Assembly (NCBI RefSeq): GCF_001191005.1 | Contig: NZ_CP012201.1 | Location: forward strand, 3,013,297-3,037,296 | Length of the DNA: 24,000 bases | Source: Massilia sp. NR 4-1 | Lineage (GTDB): Bacteria > Pseudomonadota > Gammaproteobacteria > Burkholderiales > Burkholderiaceae_D | Reading direction: 5' to 3' | Part shown: piece after piece, positions 790 through 9,521 of the stretch | How positions within the stretch are numbered: position 1 is the first letter of the stretch | Layout of the letters: each line of letters starts with the position of its first letter | Program-made: the position numbers and the translations under genes | The notes under the pieces: model-generated | The model's database searches: none | What the model saw: only the letters and a program-made list of their open reading frames with translations | What the model was told of the DNA's origin: nothing

Positions 790-1749
790 ATGTCGAGCGA
801 TGACGCAGCGGAGCTAGCACTGCCACGAAGTAGTGCTCCGCAGGTATGGGATGCCACGGTCAGCGAAACCAGCTTTTACTGGTATGACCTGATCAACGAT
901 CCCAAGGTGCCGGATTTCCACGACCCGATCGGGCGCTACCAGCGGCGCATGCAGTTCGCGCTGGACGCGACGATGGAAAAGCGCCTGATGTTCATGCTGG
1001 TGGCCCGTCCGCGCCTGCGCTTCGATCCCAAGCGCAGCACCAGCTGGGGCTTTTTCTCCCTGAAGCTGACCATTCCCATCCTGATCGGCGGCGAAGAACG
1101 CAAAAGCACGATCACGGTCGAACTGAAGACCCCGTTTGAAGCCACGTTCAAAAAACCCCTGATCCAGCTGTACGACAAATACATCACCCTGAACTGGGGT
1201 TCGATGACGGAAACCTTCACCATCCACGACCTGATGCAGCGCCACGACACCGGCCTGCACTATCCGAGCAAGGTGCAATACGTCGGCCAGACGCGCGACC
1301 CGGCCGGCCGCCTGGCCAAGGGCCGGCTGATGGCCGTCAGCAATCTGTGCGACAGCAACGCCGCGGACTACGACACCCTGCTGCTGGTGCAAAACTTCAA
1401 TGTCGCGGTCGATACCGAGGCCAAGGAATTCGCCGAGCAAGCCTCGCAGCGCAGCCAGATGGATGTGCTGGAAGCGGCGCTGATCCGCTATTTCGAAGGC
1501 GCCGACGCGCGCAGCCCCCAGGAACACCGGCTGCGGCGCGAACGCCTGCGCAGCCTGCACGAAGCCTATATGATCGACCGCCTGACCATCGACCTCGGCT
1601 TCAAGGAAGCCAACGACTTCTATGATCTGGAATCGGTCGAAGTGGAAAAATCCCGGCGCCACCTGTTCGCCTGCAGCTTCAACGAAGGCCTGGTCGCGGT
1701 CGAGCGCCTGCCCGAGCAAGGACGTCCCCTGGTCAGCCTGGAAGCGTAA
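790..1749 (+). CDS. Hypothetical protein, 319 aa, no family recognised
   Basis: Long ORF with host-like GC-rich third positions. GGAG at 780-783 lies 6 nt upstream of the ATG. The long ORF on the opposite strand (814-1845) looks like a GC shadow ORF. Confidence 0.6.
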   Translation: MSSDDAAELALPRSSAPQVWDATVSETSFYWYDLINDPKVPDFHDPIGRYQRRMQFALDATMEKRLMFMLVARPRLRFDPKRSTSWGFFSLKLTIPILIGGEERKSTITVELKTPFEATFKKPLIQLYDKYITLNWGSMTETFTIHDLMQRHDTGLHYPSKVQYVGQTRDPAGRLAKGRLMAVSNLCDSNAADYDTLLLVQNFNVAVDTEAKEFAEQASQRSQMDVLEAALIRYFEGADARSPQEHRLRRERLRSLHEAYMIDRLTIDLGFKEANDFYDLESVEVEKSRRHLFACSFNEGLVAVERLPEQGRPLVSLEA

Positions 1750-1799: not shown

Positions 1800-2160
1800 G
1801 GGGACGACCTGGCTTCGACGTGGGTTGCAAAGCAGAACAGGGCATACCGAGGGCTGGTTACCTCGTAAATACACCCAGAAACAAACTAACTGCAAACGAT
1901 AACTCGTACGCACTGGCAGCCTAAGGGCTGTTAGCTCCTCAACGCTTCTTCCCTGGGGCGGGCCGTTAAAAGCTGAGGAGTCATTTACAGGGAATCGCGC
2001 TGCTACGGGTCACTTGGATCAGCGCTAAATTTAAGGTGAATCGCCAGTACAAAGCGTGCACATTCGCGTTGTGCTGGTTAAATTAAAAGATAGTGCTAAG
2101 TATGTAGAACTGTCTGTAGAGTGCTTGCGGACGCGGGTTCGATTCCCGCCGTCTCCACCA
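1800..2160 (+). ncRNA. ssrA: tmRNA (transfer-messenger RNA, SsrA)
   Basis: The 5' GGGGACG pairs with the 3' CGUCUCC to form an acceptor stem with the G3:U alanine identity pair. T-arm is GCGGGTTCGATTCCCGC and the 3' end is CCA at 2158-2160. The internal tag frame encodes ANDNSYALAA followed by TAA. Confidence 0.95.
1892..1924 (+). other. tmRNA proteolysis-tag reading frame (A)NDNSYALAA plus TAA stop
   Basis: GCA AAC GAT AAC TCG TAC GCA CTG GCA GCC TAA read directly. The YALAA C-terminus is the canonical ClpXP/SspB-type tag ending. Confidence 0.9.
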
Positions 2161-2194: not shown

Positions 2195-2267
2195 AAGGCT
2201 GTCAATTTTGGGGTCGGATGGGGCTGATTAAGCTTCAGAATGACAACAAAATGACAGCCTTTTTTTC
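2195..2267 (+). terminator. Possible ssrA terminator: 10-bp stem (AAGGCTGTCA / TGACAGCCTT) with an unusually long 47-nt loop, followed by a T-run
   Basis: Arms at 2195-2204 and 2252-2261 are perfectly complementary, and the T-run extends to about 2266. The long loop is atypical for an intrinsic terminator. Confidence 0.35.
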
Positions 2268-2547
2268 TTGCCGATCACCGTAGCGACGTCGTTTACATTT
2301 ATCCCCGCTGCGCGTGCTCGCAGGATGCGTCCTACTCAGATAGCGTACACGCTTCCTCGGATGGGTACACAACCCGAAGTGATCACTCCACTCACGGGCA
2401 ATAGTGATTGTCGAGTCTGGAGTAGCCGGTTATGATACGGGTGCAAACTTTTTGCTCCATTTCAATAGATACAAACAGTTTTCCAACATCTTCGAGACCT
2501 TCGGAGTTTTTGCTATTCGAGCTGGCGAAAAAGGTTACAGGTTAAAT

Positions 2548-3906
2548 ATGGTAAAAATAAATAAGAAAAATCAGAGCACTAAACCAACTTTTATCGATGT
2601 ATTTGCTGGATGTGGTGGACTGAGCCTTGGACTAATGAAGTCTGGCTGGAATGGATTATTTGCAGTTGAGCACGATGCGAATGCATTCAAGACATTGCAG
2701 CATAATCTCATCGACAAAAAAGGCCCGTATCAATTTAGCTGGCCGGACTGGCTGCCTCGAACTCCTCATAGCGCAATAGATATATTGCAAAATTACATTA
2801 AGAACTTCGAAGTCTTAGAAGATAAGGTCGATATGCTCGTTGGGGGGCCCCCATGCCAAGGTTTTTCAATGGCAGGACGGCGCGACCCGAACGATCCTCG
2901 CAATAAACTTGTAGAGGCATACTTTGGTTTGGTGAATATGGTAAAGCCACGAATCGTTCTTATCGAGAATGTAAAGGGTATAACGCTCGATTTTGACGAA
3001 AAGAAGGAAGAAGGCGAAGAGCCCGGTAAGATAAATTATGCAAAAAAAATAATAAAAGAATTATCTGAAAATTATACTGTATCCTCTAAGCTAATTGATA
3101 CGTCCCAATTTGGTGTTCCTCAAAAGCGCCATCGATTCTTTATCGTTGCGGTAAGGAAAGACGTCGCGAAGAGTTTTCACCATGATCCGATTAAGCTGAT
3201 TGAAAGTGAGCGACTCTCATTTTTGAGGTCAAAAGATATCGTCAACGTTCCGATTTCGGCAAAAAGTGCGATTTCTGATTTGACAATAGAGCGCTGTGGT
3301 AAGGCAAAAAGCCGTGACAGTGAAGGCTTTGAGGAAATTCGATACGAGGGACCGCTGACTTCATATCAAAAGTTAATGAATTCAGGGAATGTGGAAAACC
3401 CTTCAGATACTCGTTTGGCTCGGCATAAAAAAGAAATCAGGGCTCGATTCAAGAAAATCATGAAGATCTGTCAAGATAGCGGAAGGCTGAATGTCTCGCT
3501 ATCGGCGGAAGTTCGTGCAAGTTTCGGGTTAAAAAAATGCGCAATCAGAGTAATGGACCCAGATAGTCCTTCCCCGACCATTACAAGTATGCCTGATGAC
3601 TTAATTCATTTTAGCGAGGCTCGCACGCTAACGGTTCGAGAAAATGCTCGTATTCAAAGCTTTCCGGACTGGTTTGAATTTAAGGGGAAATATACATCAG
3701 GAGGAGAACGTCGCAAAAGGGAGGTACCACGATTCACTCAAGTAGCAAATGCGGTACCTCCGCTAATGGCAGAGGCTATCGGAGCTACGCTTTTGAATTA
3801 CTACTTTTCATCTAAACTGCCTTTGCAGTCAACGAAGAAAAAATCTGCTCAAATGCCTCTTGCTTCTCAAGCAAAGCTAGCCGTAAATCACGCATCTCCT
3901 CACTAG
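2548..3906 (+). CDS. dcm: DNA (cytosine-5)-methyltransferase, Dcm/type II family, 452 aa from ATG 2548
   Basis: All canonical C5-MTase motifs are present. Motif I is FIDVFAGCGGLSLG. Motif IV is GGPPCQGFS, with the catalytic Cys codon at 2854-2856. Motif VI is ENVKG and motif VIII is QKRHRFFIVA. Motif IX is TLTVRENARIQSFPD and motif X is QVANAVPP. ATG 2548 is preferred over the GTG at 2404 because conserved motif I starts about 14 aa after it and an AGG lies about 6 nt upstream. Confidence 0.9.
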   Translation: MVKINKKNQSTKPTFIDVFAGCGGLSLGLMKSGWNGLFAVEHDANAFKTLQHNLIDKKGPYQFSWPDWLPRTPHSAIDILQNYIKNFEVLEDKVDMLVGGPPCQGFSMAGRRDPNDPRNKLVEAYFGLVNMVKPRIVLIENVKGITLDFDEKKEEGEEPGKINYAKKIIKELSENYTVSSKLIDTSQFGVPQKRHRFFIVAVRKDVAKSFHHDPIKLIESERLSFLRSKDIVNVPISAKSAISDLTIERCGKAKSRDSEGFEEIRYEGPLTSYQKLMNSGNVENPSDTRLARHKKEIRARFKKIMKICQDSGRLNVSLSAEVRASFGLKKCAIRVMDPDSPSPTITSMPDDLIHFSEARTLTVRENARIQSFPDWFEFKGKYTSGGERRKREVPRFTQVANAVPPLMAEAIGATLLNYYFSSKLPLQSTKKKSAQMPLASQAKLAVNHASPH

Positions 3907-4732
3907 TAAACTCCTCTCCTTTTTTGTTAAGGAGTTTCCTAGAAAACCCTTCTATCTCTACGCGGATATGTGCCAAATCATTTCGTTTTGGCATTATTTT
4001 TTCGGCGTACTCTAGCATGACCTTGTCCTGCTCATCGTAACCACCTACCAGCCTTAATGCCTTGCGTAGTAAATGCAACCGATCCGCACTTGTGTATACC
4101 AAATGCTTTTCGAATAATTGCGAAATATGGTTAATTTTCTGAAGTTCTTCCACGTTTTCATCAAACGCGTTTTTTATTTTCGCTACCTTTTCTAAAATCT
4201 TTTTAATTACTTCTTGCTGAGTTTTTGCATCACTGTTTTCGAAGATATGTAGCAAACTATCATTTACATAGTGGTCAATATCGCTGGTTGCTCCCATGAC
4301 AAGACCTCTTGAATGATCGATGTCAAGAACCTTCTTTACCAGAGACTGGAAAACTCCGTCAGCAGTATCCGGCAAATCATCTCTGCTAGATAAATATACA
4401 CCACTCACATCTGCGGCTTTTAGATATTCACGTAAATTATTTGCTTGTGCGGAATAAAATATGACGTCTTTATATGGCAGTGTCCGGCGTACTTCTTTTA
4501 ATCCCTCGTCACCATTTGGCCCGTTGTCCAAATTGTAATCCATCAGGATAAGATCGATATGGTCGGAAAATACGTTATCAGTAATGTAATTTTTAGCCTC
4601 TTCGACTGAGATGGCAAATTGAACCTTTAGGCGAAACCCTTCTGACCGAATAAGTCGCTCTAACTTCTCCTTTTGGGCTTGCACACTCTGTTGCAAGTCC
4701 TCAACCCATAGAATGTTAAAGTCTAGTCTCAT
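3812..4732 (-). CDS. Response-regulator receiver (REC) domain fused to a C-terminal helical domain with a HEPN-like Rx4H motif (RNDLAH); no DNA-binding output recognised
   Basis: REC features: N-terminal ILWVED acidic pair (E11/D12), phospho-acceptor context LILMDYNL (D65), and VIFYSAQ (S93). The C-terminal domain has KRNDLAH (R250..H255, codons 3985-3968), the RN-x-x-A-H form typical of HEPN RNases. AGGA lies 8 nt upstream of the ATG. The ATG overlaps the upstream stop as ATGA. Confidence 0.75.
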   Translation of the reverse strand: MRLDFNILWVEDLQQSVQAQKEKLERLIRSEGFRLKVQFAISVEEAKNYITDNVFSDHIDLILMDYNLDNGPNGDEGLKEVRRTLPYKDVIFYSAQANNLREYLKAADVSGVYLSSRDDLPDTADGVFQSLVKKVLDIDHSRGLVMGATSDIDHYVNDSLLHIFENSDAKTQQEVIKKILEKVAKIKNAFDENVEELQKINHISQLFEKHLVYTSADRLHLLRKALRLVGGYDEQDKVMLEYAEKIMPKRNDLAHIRVEIEGFSRKLLNKKGEEFTSEEMRDLRLALLEKQEAFEQIFSSLTAKAV

Positions 4733-7101
4733 TTTGAAATCCTAATTAAAAAGTGTGCACCCCGCCCGTTCTCACCGCTTGAGACGTCTATAGAGCCATT
4801 CATTTCGCCAAGAACGTGCTTAACATGATACAAGCCGAGCCCTGATCCATCGGTGGTAGAAAAGCCTTTTTCAAAAACTCTATCAAGCTGTTCAATCTTG
4901 TTATTAAATCCTTTTCCATCATCAAACACTTCTATGTGCAGGCCATCTTTATTAGGGTGGCTAATTTTGAACGTCATCGTTCCAGCACGGGCTTTTTTCG
5001 CGTTTGCAACAAGATTATCTATAACAACCGAAATGTCGATAGGTTTGAATTTTTGAACAAATTGTTTCCCATCATTTTCTACTTTAATCTCCATAGGGCC
5101 ATGGAGAAAATCACGAACCACTCCCTCTATATATTGCTCAATGTAACTACCAACGTCTGCTTCAATTTTTTCCGACGCCAATCTAAAATTGGCTTTGGTG
5201 GCAAACTTGGAAACTCCCATAATGCGCTTATTTATTAGCGCAACTCGCTCAAGAGCGTTAACAACTTCTTCGGTAGAAACCGTTTCTTTCCCAGCAATTC
5301 GCACCAAGAAATTCTCTATCTGCTGATTGATATCTACAGAGTAAATTGTTACCTGATGATGAAGATTAAGAATCGTATCGGTGTCTAACGTAGAAATTGA
5401 AGCGAGAAAGAGATTACGTTTCTTTTCTTCCGCTAATTGTTCTTTTACCGTTGCTGACGCATGTTCCGCTGCACGTGCCCGCTCTAATGCCGCTTCTTTA
5501 GCAGTGCGTTCCTCATCAGCTTGACGTCTTGCAGCCTCTTCAGATCGTCGCAATTCGTCAAATTTTCGTTCTGCCGACTCAATATTCTGAAAAAGCTCGG
5601 CATCCTTAGTTTTTTCTGCAATTGACCTTAGGCTTGCCAACGAGCCTTCAAACTGCGACGACCGTTCGTCTAAAATATTGATTAATTTCTTGCTGTACTC
5701 AAGTAGTTCAATCTCGTCACTATCAACAAGTTTGGCGACTGCAGTTGCTACCCGCGCTCTACCTGGGTCCGTCAACAATCTAGATATATCGCTTGTATTC
5801 TTATCTTCCTTGTCGATGAAAGTAACGGGGACTACATAGCGCTCCAGTCGCTTCAAACAATGCTCATGAAAGCATTTCTTTAATTGAGCTACCGCTAGTG
5901 TCTCAATAAGACCAGTATCTCGGCTGGAAGACTCATGAAAATCGTCATCGGCTCCTGAAACATCAATCCGACCGATTACATCTCGCGTTCCTAAGAAACG
6001 TGCATAGCCCTGCTGCTTACGCCGATCCATTCCAAACCAATCATCGCCTTCTTCGCCAATTGGAAAGACTCGAAAGCCATTTCTAAATAGAAAAACTGCA
6101 CCGAATTGAACGGAAGGGACTCCCATGCGGCGCGAAAATGTCAGCTTTGCCGATTGATTAAGGAAGAAAATTTGACAACGGAACCCGGACCGAAAAAGTA
6201 ATGGATATTCATTGGGCTCGCGAATTCTGTAGATTAGCTCACTTCGATCAGTCAGTGAGCTTTCAATAAAGTTTCCACTTGGGTCAATTCGAACATCGAT
6301 GAAGGTAGTTTTTTCTTGCAGCGTAGAAAAGATGAAATTTCCTACGGGACCATTTGCAACCGAGTTAGGGGAAATCTCAAATTCTTTTCGTTCTGAGTTC
6401 GTGATTTCAATTTGGTCTTGACGTAACTCTGAAGGAGCGTGAACTACAATGTTGAAACCATCGGCTTCGGCTCCGAAGGGGTTTATCAATTTCGCGAGCG
6501 CAGATTTGAGCCGCAGAATTGAATCTCTATCCCATTCCCGACGAGTGTTCTCAATAGTCAGGACAGTGCCATGCGATCGTGTCGCTATGCCTTCCGGTAA
6601 TTCGAAATTGTCTAACTCTGCAGAGTAAGCAACTTCGATATTTTCGAAGCGCTCCTTATGGTCGCGATCGAAGAGATTCCAGTCGACAACCAACAAATGC
6701 ACCGGCTTTTGATCTTCAGTTTGGTGCCGGGTCTGAAGTTTGACTATTTGACCCAGACGGTCGGAGGAGAAACGACCAATTCCCTTACTGCCTGCGTAGT
6801 GGTGACGCTCCGCGATATCATCGCGAAACCCGCCCAACCTCGTCTGGCCACGCTTTGATGAGTAAGCAACAAACAACCACTTATTGCGAATATCATCGTA
6901 GGTCATTCCTATACCGTTGTCGGCCACTACAATGGTGCTATTGCCAAAGTAAAGATCGACCTGACTGGCATCGGCATCGAACGAATTTTTGACAAGCTCA
7001 AAAATTGCGACCTCATCATCCGTGATGAGATCGCTACCTAGCACGCTCTTGAGCCCACTACTTACGTCAAAGTGCAGGTCAGGGGCCTCGTCATTTGTCA
7101 T
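4729..7101 (-). CDS. 790-aa dual-GHKL protein: N-terminal MutL/MORC/Hsp90-clade ATPase, central domain, coiled coil, and C-terminal histidine-kinase catalytic module
   Basis: N-terminal Bergerat motifs are ELVKNSFDADA (E35/N39/D42), VADNGIGM (D61) and GSKGIGRF. A charged heptad-like stretch (about residues 500-565) reads ERKFDELRRSEEAARRQADEERTAKEAALERARAAE. The candidate H-box is ILNLHHQV (H581/H582, codons 5361-5356). HK N-box is VIDNLVANAKKA, G1 is VFDDGKGF and G2 is DGSGLGLY. Codon usage is AT-rich like the island. Confidence 0.8.
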   Translation of the reverse strand: MTNDEAPDLHFDVSSGLKSVLGSDLITDDEVAIFELVKNSFDADASQVDLYFGNSTIVVADNGIGMTYDDIRNKWLFVAYSSKRGQTRLGGFRDDIAERHHYAGSKGIGRFSSDRLGQIVKLQTRHQTEDQKPVHLLVVDWNLFDRDHKERFENIEVAYSAELDNFELPEGIATRSHGTVLTIENTRREWDRDSILRLKSALAKLINPFGAEADGFNIVVHAPSELRQDQIEITNSERKEFEISPNSVANGPVGNFIFSTLQEKTTFIDVRIDPSGNFIESSLTDRSELIYRIREPNEYPLLFRSGFRCQIFFLNQSAKLTFSRRMGVPSVQFGAVFLFRNGFRVFPIGEEGDDWFGMDRRKQQGYARFLGTRDVIGRIDVSGADDDFHESSSRDTGLIETLAVAQLKKCFHEHCLKRLERYVVPVTFIDKEDKNTSDISRLLTDPGRARVATAVAKLVDSDEIELLEYSKKLINILDERSSQFEGSLASLRSIAEKTKDAELFQNIESAERKFDELRRSEEAARRQADEERTAKEAALERARAAEHASATVKEQLAEEKKRNLFLASISTLDTDTILNLHHQVTIYSVDINQQIENFLVRIAGKETVSTEEVVNALERVALINKRIMGVSKFATKANFRLASEKIEADVGSYIEQYIEGVVRDFLHGPMEIKVENDGKQFVQKFKPIDISVVIDNLVANAKKARAGTMTFKISHPNKDGLHIEVFDDGKGFNNKIEQLDRVFEKGFSTTDGSGLGLYHVKHVLGEMNGSIDVSSGENGRGAHFLIRISK

Positions 7102-7150
7102 AGGATTCCAGTGCTGAAGTTGGTTACTGGTAACAATTTATCAAAGAAGC

Positions 7151-7156
7151 ATTATA
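7151..7156 (-). promoter_or_regulatory. Possible -10 (TATAAT on the minus strand) for the kinase/receiver operon
   Basis: A perfect TATAAT lies about 45 nt upstream of the ATG at 7101, but I found no good -35 at 16-18 bp spacing. Confidence 0.25.
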
Positions 7157-7183
7157 TTCCAGGTTGCAAGCAGTTGTGGCACT

Positions 7184-7584
7184 TTAAGTGATAAAGTGGT
7201 TCTCTTTTAGCAATTTTTCTTGTTGCGCAATCAATCCTTTGCTACATCCAACTAGCTCCATAATTTCGCTTCAGCTGGACACACCTGCTTTTAAATGCTT
7301 TTGAATCAAAAGATTCCGTTCATGGTTCGGCTTTCGTCCTTGATATTTTCCTGCGCTTTGTGCTTTTCGGACTCCTTGCGCAACTCGTTCCCGCCTAGTT
7401 AAGTAATCTTTTCTTGCAACAGCTGCTAGCATACCTAACATCATTCCATTCAAGGCAGTGAATACACTTGATGTAAATTCATCATGTTTGATCATCGCCC
7501 AGGACGTAGGAAGATCTAATGCTACAACTCTGATGGATTTTTCTGCCAGGTGACTTTTTAAAAGATTCCAATCGAATTCTTTAA
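7184..7584 (-). pseudogene. Serine recombinase (resolvase/invertase family) relic, C-terminal portion, with an in-frame TGA before the HTH
   Basis: The minus-strand frame reads ...KEFDWNLLKSHLAEKSIRVVALDLPTSWAMIKHDEF...MMLGMLAAVARKDYLTRRERVAQGVRKAQSAGKYQGRKP...KAGVSS. A TGA follows at 7273-7271. The same frame then continues SEIMELVGCSKGLIAQQEKLLKENHFIT to a TAA at 7186-7184, which looks like the resolvase C-terminal HTH. The 5' side is cut by the IS at about 7585. Confidence 0.7.
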
Positions 7585-8797
7585 GGAAGCGCTGATTTAA
7601 TCGTCGCCCCGTGCCTGCAACTCTGCGTCAAGCTGCCACAATGTCGGCTTACTAACTGCGAGACCAGTTCATGCAATCGAGCTTTTCCGACGCCGAGTAC
7701 GCCAGCAAGAAGAAGCCTACGCGGCGTGACCGTTTCCTGGCCGAGATCGAGGCCGCCACGCCGTGGCCGGCGCTGGTGGCGGCGATCCTGCCTTACTATC
7801 CCAAGGGCGATGGCCGTGGCCGCCCACCAATCGGCCTGGAGCGCATGCTGCGCATGTACATTGCCCAGCAGTGCTTCGGCCTTTCGGACGAGGGCGTCGA
7901 AGATGCCATCTACGACAGCCAGGCGATTCGCGGCTTTGTCGGCATCGATCTGACGCACGAATCGGCGCCTGACGCGACCACGCTGCTGAAGTTCCGGCGC
8001 TTGCTGGAGAAGAACAATTTGACCCGGCGCATCTTCAACGAAATCAACGGCCACCTGGCCAGCAAAGGCCTGACGATGCGCGAAGGCACCATCGTGGACG
8101 CCACCTTGATCGCCGCGCCGCCATCGACCAAGAACGCGATGGCGAGCGCGATCCGGAAATGCACCAATCGAAGAAAGGCAATGACTGGCACTTCGGCATG
8201 AAGGCGCACGTCGGTGTGGACGTGGCCAGTGGCCTGGTGCACAGCGTTGTGGGCACCGCTGGCAATGTGGCCGACGTGACGCAGGCGCATGCGCTGCTGC
8301 ACGGCGGCGAGGTGATCGCGATGGGCGATGCGGGCTATCAGGGCGTGGCCAAGCGGCCCGAGAATGCTGGCTCGGCCGTCGTGTGGCCCCCCCCCATGCG
8401 CCCCGGCTTGCGTAAGACGCTCAAGAAGGACAAGCTTGGCCGCGCCACCGAAAGGCTGGAACAAACTAAGGCCAGCGTGCGCGCCAAGGTCGAGCACTGC
8501 TTCCACGTTGTCAAATGCCTGTTCCGCCATCGCAAGACCCGTTATCGTGGACTGGCCAAAAATGCGGCGCAGCTGTTCTCCTTATTCGCGCTGGCCAATC
8601 TGGTGCTGGCACGCAGATTCCTCGGCAGCGCTCACACCCAAGTTGCATCCCGAGTTTGAAAAAGCGGCAAAGGCCATGTTGAAAACAGGCTTTTTCGCTC
8701 TGCAGCCAGTCATGTTTCCTGATTTTGATATCGCTGCGCCGACGTGGCTCTCACAGCGGCCCTGCTGGCGTCGGAAACTGAATTGTTCAGCGGCTCC
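7585..8797 (+). mobile_element. IS5-family insertion sequence, about 1.2 kb and GC-rich, with imperfect terminal inverted repeats
   Basis: The left end is GGAAGCGCTGATTTAATC. The reverse complement of the right end is GGAGCCGCTGAACAATTC. The flanking tetranucleotides TTAA (7581-7584) and CTAG (8798-8801) both fit the YTAR target preference of IS5-group elements but are not identical. The internal DDE transposase is IS5-like. Confidence 0.75.
7671..8659 (+). pseudogene. IS5-family DDE transposase, disrupted by a 1-nt frameshift near 8135
   Basis: Frame 1 reads ...TIVDATLIAAPPSTKN, then drifts. The next frame continues (R)DGERDPEMHQSKKGNDWHFGMKAHVGVD...GDAGYQG...RAKVEHCFHVVK...RYRGLAKN, which gives the DDE signature of the IS5 group. 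Joining the two frames needs one extra C in AAC-(C)GC-GAT at about 8135. Confidence 0.8.
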
Positions 8798-9071: not shown

Positions 9072-9521
9072 TTAATCCACCACGTTCAACTTCACCTGTG
9101 CCCCATCCGGCAAATCCTGCATCTGCCGCGCCACATCGCCCGACAGGCGGATCAGCTCATGCAAAGGCGCGCTTGCCAGATTCTCCGCCTTATACTCCCC
9201 ACCAAGCACGCCCGGGATTTTCAGGCAGTACTTGCGGCCCTCGGTCAACGGTCCGCAATGCTCGCGCGCGATCTTGGTCAAGCCGGCCATATGCCAGTCC
9301 TGCAAAAAGTCCTGATCGGCCGACAGCACGTCGAGCGCCTGGCGGTCGGACGCCACCACCGCGCAGCTGCATTCTTCCGGCATCAGCCGCCAATAGCGGC
9401 CCTGGACATCCTTGATGATCAGATTGCCGAAATCATTTTCCCCCACCACCTCCAGCGCCTGCAGTCCCGCCCAGCCCCAGCTTTCGTTCAACTCTTTGAT
9501 GATATCCATACGTCCTGCCAT
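9072..9521 (-). CDS. DUF1851-like (Tdi1 C-terminal-like) domain protein, 149 aa
   Basis: The pattern GNLIIKDVQGRYWRL ... CGPLTEGRKYCLKIPGVLGGEYKAENL...LHELIRL resembles the DUF1851 signature (GPL..dE.YGF.P...LGG....NL). Codon usage is GC-rich and host-like. The family call is from memory only. Confidence 0.5.
   Translation of the reverse strand: MAGRMDIIKELNESWGWAGLQALEVVGENDFGNLIIKDVQGRYWRLMPEECSCAVVASDRQALDVLSADQDFLQDWHMAGLTKIAREHCGPLTEGRKYCLKIPGVLGGEYKAENLASAPLHELIRLSGDVARQMQDLPDGAQVKLNVVD

Follow-up and report, generated by a model that had tools for sequence, protein, structure and literature searches.

A 24,000-nucleotide (nt) stretch of the genome of Massilia sp. NR 4-1 (GCF_001191005.1, contig NZ_CP012201.1, positions 3,013,297-3,037,296 of the forward strand; hereafter the window) contains a module of three genes encoding a C5 cytosine DNA methyltransferase of the Dcm type (452 amino acids (aa), 2548-3906, plus strand), a receiver protein (306 aa, 3812-4732, minus strand), and a histidine kinase (790 aa, 4729-7101, minus strand; the domains of the latter two proteins are given in coordinates of the same strand). 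The three genes form one horizontally mobile cassette, conserved together in about a dozen bacterial phyla, whose role is very likely in defence, addiction, or both. It is interpreted here, with moderate confidence, as a self-contained mobile module resembling a restriction-modification (R-M) system, in which a phosphorelay has replaced the nuclease and the output is a HEPN-like RNase. The architectural class has been known since 2021, and the family represented in the window is an unnamed variant of it, not a categorically new system.

An earlier sequence-only reading of this DNA had reported three AT-rich genes, an ATGA overlap between the kinase stop codon and the receiver start codon, and a set of catalytic motifs. 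Three long open reading frames (ORFs) do fill a low-GC block (41-46% GC over about 2200-7500 of the window, compared with 60-66% in the flanking DNA), and the sequence contains the genes at the positions given, the overlap (4729-4732; minus strand, ...ATT TCA AAA TGA / ATG AGA CTA GAC...), and all of the motifs quoted, namely LILMD65YNL, KRNDLAH, H581/H582, N39, D61, and PPC103Q. The overlap, which is predicted to couple the translation of the kinase and receiver genes, recurs in 28 of 61 related loci.

Conservation of the three-gene module

A scan for related loci, taking one genome per species, yielded 78 loci, 63 of which, from about a dozen phyla, have a complete kinase gene and at least 1 kb of sequence downstream. 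The receiver gene directly follows the kinase gene in 61 of the 63, starting 0-54 nt downstream, and a Dcm homologue abuts the kinase-receiver pair in 59, lying either past the receiver gene in convergent orientation, the window's arrangement (43 loci), or co-directional upstream of the kinase gene (16 loci). Clustering of all ORFs from the 78 loci returned as recurring genes the kinase (69 loci), the Dcm methylase (66), the receiver protein (at least 57), and a 140-170-aa neighbour identified as Vsr (PF03852, 5.5e-31; 16 loci); all flanking genes besides Vsr vary from locus to locus. This census of the genes adjacent to homologues of the 790-aa protein bears on two suggestions of the sequence-only reading: the methylase is an obligate partner of the module and no orphan, as it had been called, and the suspected link of the methylase to the kinase and receiver is stronger than had been guessed.

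The methylase matches Pfam DNA_methylase (1.8e-53), PADLOC MTase_II (2.1e-81), and TIGR00675 (8e-43), and has the motifs FxGxG (F19-G24), PPC103Q, E140-N-V, QxRxR, and NAVPP. Its ORF can be extended upstream to a GTG at 2404, but homology starts at the ATG at 2548. At its other end, the methylase ORF runs 95 nt (3812-3906) into the 3' end of the receiver gene, with which it is convergent, due to a non-conserved methylase extension of ~30 aa; homologues align only to ~residue 421-424, and the stop codons of the methylase and receiver genes almost abut in the relatives.

Relatives of the kinase number in the thousands, the best 120 being full length, 66-90% identical, and drawn from Proteobacteria, Acidobacteria, Ignavibacteria, and others. 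Identity across phyla is 66-73%, and such strong conservation suggests that the kinase has a universal ligand. The receiver protein has 906 relatives on the same contigs as relatives of the kinase. In the closest genomic relative, Janthinobacterium sp. RB2P8 (kinase 90%, receiver 88%, methylase 83% identity), the module lies at a different genomic site.

Domain organization of the kinase

The kinase is predicted to be a soluble protein in which a paraMORC-type GHKL ATPase is fused to a histidine-kinase transmitter. The paraMORC/MutL-type GHKL domain (aa 21-221, 6439-7041) matches HATPase_c_3 over aa 30-161 (1.7e-22), and the best curated match of the N-terminal ~200 aa is to the N terminus of the BbrUII/HgiDII restriction enzymes (NCBIfam NF050001, 5e-20), a family of ATPase-nuclease type restriction enzymes. 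The Bergerat motifs of this domain (E35, N39, D61xGxG65, and G104xxGxG109) are invariant in 64 of 64 kinases; among the features of paraMORCs, intact GHKL motifs and a setting of Dcm and Vsr genes are present. The middle domain (aa 250-470, 5692-6354) is, by block identities and column counts, the best-conserved part of the kinase, with 70-81% identity between phyla and invariant residues N341, R344, G349, D354, R361, and E420. No match to it was found in Pfam or the PDB; by analogy with paraMORCs (PMC2292703), it is possibly an S5 transducer.

A charged coiled-coil linker (aa ~480-565) and a DHp-like region with the H-box LNLH581H582Q (together 5044-5664) lie directly upstream of the catalytic (CA) domain. 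H582 (codon 5356-5358), which is invariant in all 64 kinases while H581 is present in 62, is the likely phospho-acceptor. The DHp assignment is based on position and conservation, and none of the DHp families of Pfam, including HEF_HK (PF19191), is matched by the kinase. The CA GHKL domain (aa 687-788, 4738-5043) matches HATPase_c (4e-22) as well as ZraS, EnvZ, and PhoR, and its boxes (N696/N700; G1, D727xGxG731; F743; G2, G752xGxG756) are invariant in the 64 kinases. The kinase thus has what is expected of a phosphorelay kinase: a conserved histidine in a helical segment, followed by a CA domain that has all four boxes (N, G1, F, and G2). The domains found and the invariance of their catalytic residues are consistent with the two-gene phosphorelay proposed by the sequence-only reading, in which a MutL/MORC-type sensor kinase would be paired with a receiver lacking a DNA-binding output.

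The receiver protein and its output domain

The 306-aa protein begins with a receiver (REC) domain (aa 1-133, 4334-4732), recognized by a match to Response_reg (7.8e-6), by an AlphaFold2 model of the whole protein built on a 71-sequence alignment (mean predicted local distance difference test score, pLDDT, 86.7), in which a (beta-alpha)5 fold at aa 1-133 is followed by a helical domain at aa 138-305, and by Foldseek, which matched the fold of aa 1-133 to solved receiver domains at 1e-5 to 6e-7. All elements of the receiver signature are present: an acidic pair (E11-D12), the acceptor aspartate D65 of LILMD65YNL (codon 4538-4540), expected where beta3 ends, S94 at the Ser/Thr position of beta4, and, for beta5, a basic residue at position 117 (R or K; R117 in the window). 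Conservation was assessed in 37 diverse sequences, down to 22% identity, in which D65, W9, G32, F33, G74, F92, Y93, G111, D137, R142, G143, R250, H255, and R284 are invariant. The receiver domains of ten of the 37 also weakly match cREC_REC (PF20274), a receiver variant tied to cyclic-phosphate RNA-processing systems, and five weakly match Response_reg_2.

The remainder of the protein is an all-helical output domain (aa 138-306, 3815-4321; AlphaFold2 pLDDT 87.8 when modelled alone), which is likely an effector and not a DNA-binding output: neither the Pfam scans nor the AlphaFold2 model reveals a helix-turn-helix (HTH) or other DNA-binding domain in the receiver protein. The best-conserved feature of the output domain is an Rx4H motif, R250-N-D-L-A-H255 (within KRNDLAH, nt 3968-3985), in which N251 is at least 90% conserved alongside the two invariant residues. 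In the numbering of the model, the domain consists of helix 1 (2-36), helix 2 (40-69), an insert (74-100), helix 3 (104-124, ending in RNDLAH), a beta hairpin, and helix 4 (148-174). HEPN domains are defined by a four-helix up-down core, an Rx4-6H motif that closes helix 3 and whose arginine is followed by a polar residue, and an insert separating helices 2 and 3 (PMC3710099). The output domain agrees with this definition in its motif and, on the predicted structure, in its topology; furthermore, nine of the 37 family members have sub-threshold matches to HEPN_MAE_28990, HEPN_RiboL-PSP, or HEPN_LA2681, with no other output family recurring, and RiboL-PSP-HEPN (PF18735) is recorded for several proteins of the sister clade described below. 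Because of the motif, the predicted topology, and the weak Pfam matches, assignment of the output domain to the HEPN class is considered probable. The HEPN proposal is thus held less firmly than in the sequence-only reading, and the searches in which the domain found no counterpart are set out where the interpretation is weighed.

A profile of the output domain matched 426 clusters (at 50% identity) among 1.84 billion representatives. In almost every full-length protein of the best 150 of these clusters, the output domain stands behind a receiver domain, the remainder being short fragments, so that the domain appears to be restricted to receiver-fused architecture; the same 150 matches contain no sequence bridge to established HEPN proteins. 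An alternative reading of the helical bundle as a histidine phosphotransfer (HPt) domain was rejected, as the bundle lacks an HxxKG-type motif and its conserved histidine lies in an R-N-x3-H context.

Mobility, decay, and variants of the module

A sister clade, in which the kinase is 31% identical to that of the window over its full length (E 1e-115) and the receiver protein is 29% identical (E 1e-23), with similarity extending through the RNxLAH motif, has an extra gene between the receiver and Dcm genes that encodes a HAD_PNKP polynucleotide 3'-phosphatase of 147-152 aa. The loci with this gene (L057:13352-13810, L058:13355-13813, L083:5582-6040, L081/L082:6977-7420, and L087:5976-6419) come from metagenome-assembled genomes (MAGs) of Dongiaceae and Deltaproteobacteria, one further contig, and Yersinia pseudotuberculosis and Y. 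enterocolitica (L081/L082/L087). Enzymes of the polynucleotide kinase-phosphatase (PNKP) type heal the ends left by metal-independent RNases, and for that reason the linkage fits an RNA-cleaving effector; the phosphatase may either have this role or act as an aspartyl-phosphate phosphatase that buffers the receiver relay. The four-gene sister module of Y. enterocolitica (L087:8-9281) is located between Phage_GPA and Phage_portal/terminase genes, and thus occupies the gpA-gpQ interval of P2-like prophages, a hotspot for anti-phage cargo (PMC9122126). The receiver protein of this Y. enterocolitica module bears the UniRef name 'Prophage encoded two-component system response regulator'. A near-identity megablast search with the L087 module returned no match among complete E. 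coli genomes.

Elsewhere, copies of the module adjoin an integrase gene or transposase genes of the TniQ, TniB, or Mu type, and six IMG/VR viral contigs have a relative; plasmids in PLSDB and phage genomes yielded no close homologue, only distant relatives of the paraMORC-kinase. Several copies are decaying. Insertion sequence (IS) transposases of two different families interrupt the output half of the receiver gene in L031 (12866-13975) and L051 (13002-14051), in the latter of which the receiver gene resumes past the IS, and L047, L069, and L073 have a frameshift in the kinase or receiver gene. Of these loci, L031, L051, L069, and L073 retain an intact Dcm gene, the sequence of L047 being too short to cover it, and the converse state, an intact kinase and receiver pair with no linked Dcm, was seen once only (L001). 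Such lopsided decay is the pattern of R-M systems and of toxin-antidote pairs, and the two independent insertions into the output domain are taken as signs of toxicity.

Other cassettes combine a similar core with other outputs. In two Bacteroidota, Mongoliibacter (L053:7655-12612) and Flagellimonas (L054), genes for an M.HpaII-like methylase, the HpaII endonuclease (PF09561, 1.9e-138), and a 747-aa paraMORC-kinase occur in a row, and in L053 a gene for a 127-aa receiver-only protein overlaps the kinase stop codon, a small ORF having the equivalent position in L054; with no output fused to the receiver, such a relay must act on another protein. The Campylobacter jejuni conjugative plasmid p15597A-2 (L079:3965-8418) has an analogous cassette of a 732-aa kinase, a 340-aa response regulator, and a convergent dcm, adjoining vapD and a recombinase gene, and 27 Campylobacter plasmids were matched; the C-terminal domain of its regulator is unrelated to that of the window and has no Pfam match. 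On plasmid P2 of Deinococcus gobiensis (L080:1901-7514), the gene order is an HTH regulator, an Eco57I-type N6 methylase, a paraMORC-kinase, a 215-aa receiver protein, and an HNH endonuclease. The differing outputs of these plasmid cassettes suggest that output modules are swapped around a constant core of methylase, paraMORC-kinase, and receiver, which is typical of defence systems.

Relationship to known systems

PADLOC-DB v2.0.0 contains no named or candidate system that corresponds to the module. Its single-protein matches are confined to REase_II for the GHKL part of the kinase (1.4e-7), PDC-M62B (4e-4) and PDC-M60B (2.8e-3) for the receiver protein, and the generic MTase_II for the methylase. 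The description of a type II R-M system does not apply either, since the methylase has all catalytic motifs but no nuclease domain was detected in the module. The closest precedents are the HEF_HK/Response_reg_2 pairs of Bellieny-Rabelo et al. 2021 (PMC8011034), in which a kinase of HATPase_c_3-DHp-HATPase_c architecture and an atypical receiver are linked to a C5 methylase and Vsr; these were read as R-M regulators, for which a paraMORC derivation was proposed, and their output domain was not identified. The soluble kinase architecture, the adjacent atypical receiver, the strong linkage to DNA_methylase, and the frequent Vsr are all shared by the family in the window. The latter differs in that PF19191 was never matched, either in our own scans or in the precomputed Pfam assignments of 120 homologues, in that only five of 37 receivers touch PF19192 (best 3e-3), and in that its H-box is HHQ rather than H-E/D. 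Membership of HEF_HK/Response_reg_2 was rejected on these Pfam results, and the window's proteins, being outside both Pfam families, are assigned to a sister family. The Rx4H domain, the PNKP linkage, and the prophage-hotspot location seen in the present family and its sister clade do not appear in PMC8011034.

A related cassette, Ambrosia, was validated as an anti-phage system in 2025 (10.1101/2025.09.30.679545) and comprises an XRE regulator, an N6-adenine methylase, an HSP90/histidine-kinase-like ATPase, a REC-winged HTH protein whose acceptor aspartate is essential (D60A), and a type IV HNH nuclease. It resembles the module in placing a methylase, an HATPase kinase, and a receiver in a single cassette, and the kinase of the Ambrosia-like locus on D. 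gobiensis P2 is 27% identical to that of the window over aa 7-435. In contrast to Ambrosia, the window has a C5 methylase and a receiver with a HEPN-like domain attached, and neither XRE nor HNH; as no XRE or HNH gene recurs in the flanks of the module, the five-gene content of Ambrosia is not found there. The sequence-only reading, which did not recognize the combination as a named system, was right in so far as PADLOC assigns none, but it overstated the novelty: the class itself had been described in 2021 and the related Ambrosia has since been validated.

Detocs (Rousset et al. 2023; 10.1101/2023.01.24.525353) consists of a kinase with a tetratricopeptide repeat (TPR) sensor (DtcA), a stand-alone receiver (DtcB), and a receiver-effector (DtcC) whose effectors are swappable among PNP, restriction endonuclease (REase), TOPRIM, and transmembrane (TM) types; mutation of the acceptor aspartate abolishes defence. 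The module shares with Detocs, in which the outcome is abortive infection, the His-Asp relay and a response regulator whose output is a toxic effector (a predicted one in the module) and not a DNA-binding domain, and probably resembles it downstream of the sensor. As the earlier reading had noted, it lacks the buffer receiver (DtcB). Nor does it have a TPR sensor; instead, it has a paraMORC GHKL sensor, an obligatory methylase, and a HEPN-like effector. Membership of Detocs was rejected because no stand-alone receiver recurs in the 78 loci and the kinase N terminus is HATPase_c_3, not TPR.

In paraMORC systems a GHKL module is encoded beside Dcm and Vsr (PMC2292703), and paraMORC-Ymh(HEPN) fusions found in R-M neighbourhoods were predicted by Aravind and colleagues to act like PrrC (PMC3710099). 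The module shares the N-terminal paraMORC GHKL domain and the Dcm/Vsr setting with these systems, which include the BbrUII/HgiDII-type enzymes and the paraMORC-Ymh fusions, but in those a nuclease or HEPN domain is fused straight to the ATPase, whereas here a histidine-kinase transmitter and a separate receiver stand in between. By analogy, the module may be regarded as the paraMORC-HEPN idea with a phosphorelay inserted. PrrC is a HEPN anticodon nuclease kept latent through direct binding to a type I enzyme until a phage peptide activates it, and phage T4 counters it with polynucleotide kinase-phosphatase and ligase. PrrC-EcoprrI and RloC resemble the module, with its probable HEPN output, in tying a HEPN RNase functionally to an R-M system, and the T4 countermeasure is echoed by the PNKP-type phosphatase of the sister clade; PrrC differs in having no kinase, receiver, or C5 methylase. 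No description of a receiver-HEPN effector coupled to a paraMORC kinase was found in the literature searched.

Proposed mechanism and alternatives

The mechanism that we infer, comprising a trigger, phosphotransfer, an RNase activity, and a protective role of methylation, would run as follows. The Dcm methylase would mark host DNA and serve as an antidote. The sensor would be a paraMORC-type ATPase as in the BbrUII/HgiDII-type enzymes, with the C-terminal nuclease swapped for a histidine-kinase transmitter, and its trigger would most likely be unmethylated or foreign DNA, sensed alone or with the methylase, or alternatively a loss of methylation. The triggered kinase would autophosphorylate on H582 and hand the phosphate on to D65 of the receiver protein made alongside it by coupled translation, which would then dimerise and pair two HEPN-like domains, allowing R250, N251, and H255 to cleave RNA. 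The consequence would be growth arrest or abortive infection, and post-segregational killing upon loss of the module. The precedents of Detocs and Ambrosia indicate that His-Asp relays can drive anti-phage effectors.

Several results weigh against this interpretation. Those that concern the output domain are that all of its Pfam HEPN matches are below the curated thresholds, that family consensus sequences searched against Pfam gave only noise, with HEPN families not convincingly matched, that the output-domain model returned nothing below E 0.2 from the PDB and BFVD in Foldseek (the full-length receiver model matched receiver domains only), and that a sequence-profile search of the PDB found no HEPN protein, its best hit (E 0.013) being an unrelated fusion protein. 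The Response_reg match of the receiver domain is likewise sub-threshold (score 26.5, compared with a Pfam gathering score of 30.2). Among ~135 genes flanking the window's clade, a test for defence-island enrichment found only 2-3 matches, all to type I R-M; the flanks are mixed, with many housekeeping genes alongside a few genes for resolvases, transposases, and type I R-M systems. A defence setting was found for the sister clade in the P2 gpA-gpQ hotspot, whereas the flanks of the window's own clade are not obvious defence islands. In one locus from an uncultured Massilia MAG (L001:12364-13859), the kinase (83% identity) and the receiver (85%) are intact and adjoin Vsr, but a Dcm gene is absent from the surrounding 10 kb. 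Phage DNA was not protected by methylation in Ambrosia, whose relay appears to operate at the level of transcription (10.1101/2025.09.30.679545). Finally, no region of the kinase co-varies with the target-recognition domain of the methylase: compared with the window, the target-recognition region is 18-33% identical in the co-directional group and 43-64% identical in the convergent group, yet, in each 50-aa block, kinases of the two groups resemble that of the window to the same degree. It therefore seems that the kinase does not itself read the target sequence of the methylase, which weakens the GHKL-based sensing of foreign DNA suggested by the sequence-only reading; the methylation state, if sensed, is probably read through the methylase or independently of sequence. 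In type III systems, Res uses Mod for recognition.

The module might instead be a two-component regulator by which DNA methylation or an unlinked R-M system is tuned, with an output domain that has no catalytic role and binds protein or RNA, regulating for instance Dcm activity or the convergent transcript. Analogous pairs were read as R-M regulators by the authors of PMC8011034, the Ambrosia relay appears to control transcription, no fold match from Foldseek (PDB and BFVD) or the PDB profile search confirms an enzymatic output domain, and in L053 and L054 the kinase stands beside a complete HpaII R-M system, its partner in L053 being a receiver-only protein. We nevertheless consider a purely regulatory role unlikely: the receiver protein lacks an HTH or other DNA-binding domain, there is no conserved adjacent nuclease gene to be regulated, an invariant arginine and histidine in the exact spacing and position of HEPN, together with the near-invariant asparagine, would be hard to explain in a scaffold, and the PNKP phosphatase linkage and the IS insertions into the output domain point to a damaging activity.

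A purely selfish addiction cassette, in which the methylase provides the antidote and cells that have lost the element are killed by the kinase-receiver pair, with no anti-phage role, would account for a self-contained module in unrelated genomic sites, transposons, and prophages, for the decay of the toxin side while the methylase persists, and for flanks not enriched in known defence genes. Addiction is compatible with defence, however, as classical R-M systems do both; the sister clade resides in the P2 gpA-gpQ hotspot, the cargo of which is overwhelmingly anti-phage, and L001 retains the kinase and receiver without a linked methylase, so that an exclusively selfish element is judged improbable. 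Least credible of all is a two-gene Detocs subtype with a HEPN effector, to which we give very little weight: both follow one logic (a soluble kinase plus a receiver with a non-DNA-binding effector) and Detocs effectors are swappable, but the definition and detection of Detocs call for three genes, DtcB among them, its DtcA has a TPR sensor, and the present family has no buffer receiver in 78 loci, a paraMORC GHKL sensor, and Dcm as an obligate partner.

Within the preferred interpretation of an R-M-like module with a phosphorelay, a more specific proposal is offered tentatively: that this is a widespread immune system without DNA cleavage, in which cytosine methylation is the self mark, a MORC-like GHKL clamp reads it, possibly via the methylase, and a His-Asp relay to a HEPN RNase halts the cell. 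If true, this would make it the first two-component immune pathway gated by methylation, and would set a precedent in prokaryotes for MORC ATPases that sense and signal the methylation state of DNA; the sensor, a bacterial relative of the MORC ATPases of eukaryotes, is hence relevant to MORC biology. The module would couple an epigenetic self mark to an RNA-targeting abortive response, joining R-M logic to toxin-type effectors via reversible phosphorylation, and would be a third way of wiring a phosphorelay into immunity, besides the TPR sensor and ATP nucleosidase of Detocs and the transcriptional control of an HNH nuclease in Ambrosia. The family, with at least 426 clusters at 50% identity, is missed by current defence annotation (PADLOC), and its copies in Yersinia prophages and the analogous cassettes on Campylobacter conjugative plasmids are of practical interest. 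With only three genes, each having an obvious key residue or residues (H582, D65 and R250/H255, and C103), the module offers a clean experimental handle.

Borders of the island and neighbouring genes

The left border of the low-GC island is a transfer-messenger RNA (tmRNA) gene (1800-2160, plus strand; ARAGORN; Rfam RF00023, 217 bits; tag peptide DNSYALAA), which is outside the module: in nine related loci that were checked, no tmRNA gene lies beside the module, the adjacency being peculiar to the window. An att-like repeat of the tmRNA 3' end was looked for and not found, the island contains no integrase gene, and promoter and terminator scans returned sites no commoner than in shuffled sequence. 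The right border, also outside the module, consists of a 74-aa C-terminal remnant of a resolvase (7271-7495, minus strand; weak Resolvase match, 0.063) and an IS5-type transposase in two overlapping ORFs (7671-8201 and 8159-8659, plus strand; DUF772, 2e-21, and DDE_Tnp_1, 1.7e-24), which is either a programmed frameshift or a pseudogene; over this border (7271-8659) the GC content returns to ~60%.

In L001, the module is followed by an 1843-aa ORF with a TrwB-like segment. To the left of the tmRNA gene of the window, between it and a gene for a HAD-type phosphatase, is a 319-aa ORF (790-1749, plus strand) of host-like GC content with no match in Pfam, NCBIfam, or PADLOC. Just past the island on the right, a 149-aa ORF (9072-9521, minus strand) encodes a Tdi1 C-terminal domain (type VI secretion system immunity protein; 3.9e-13).

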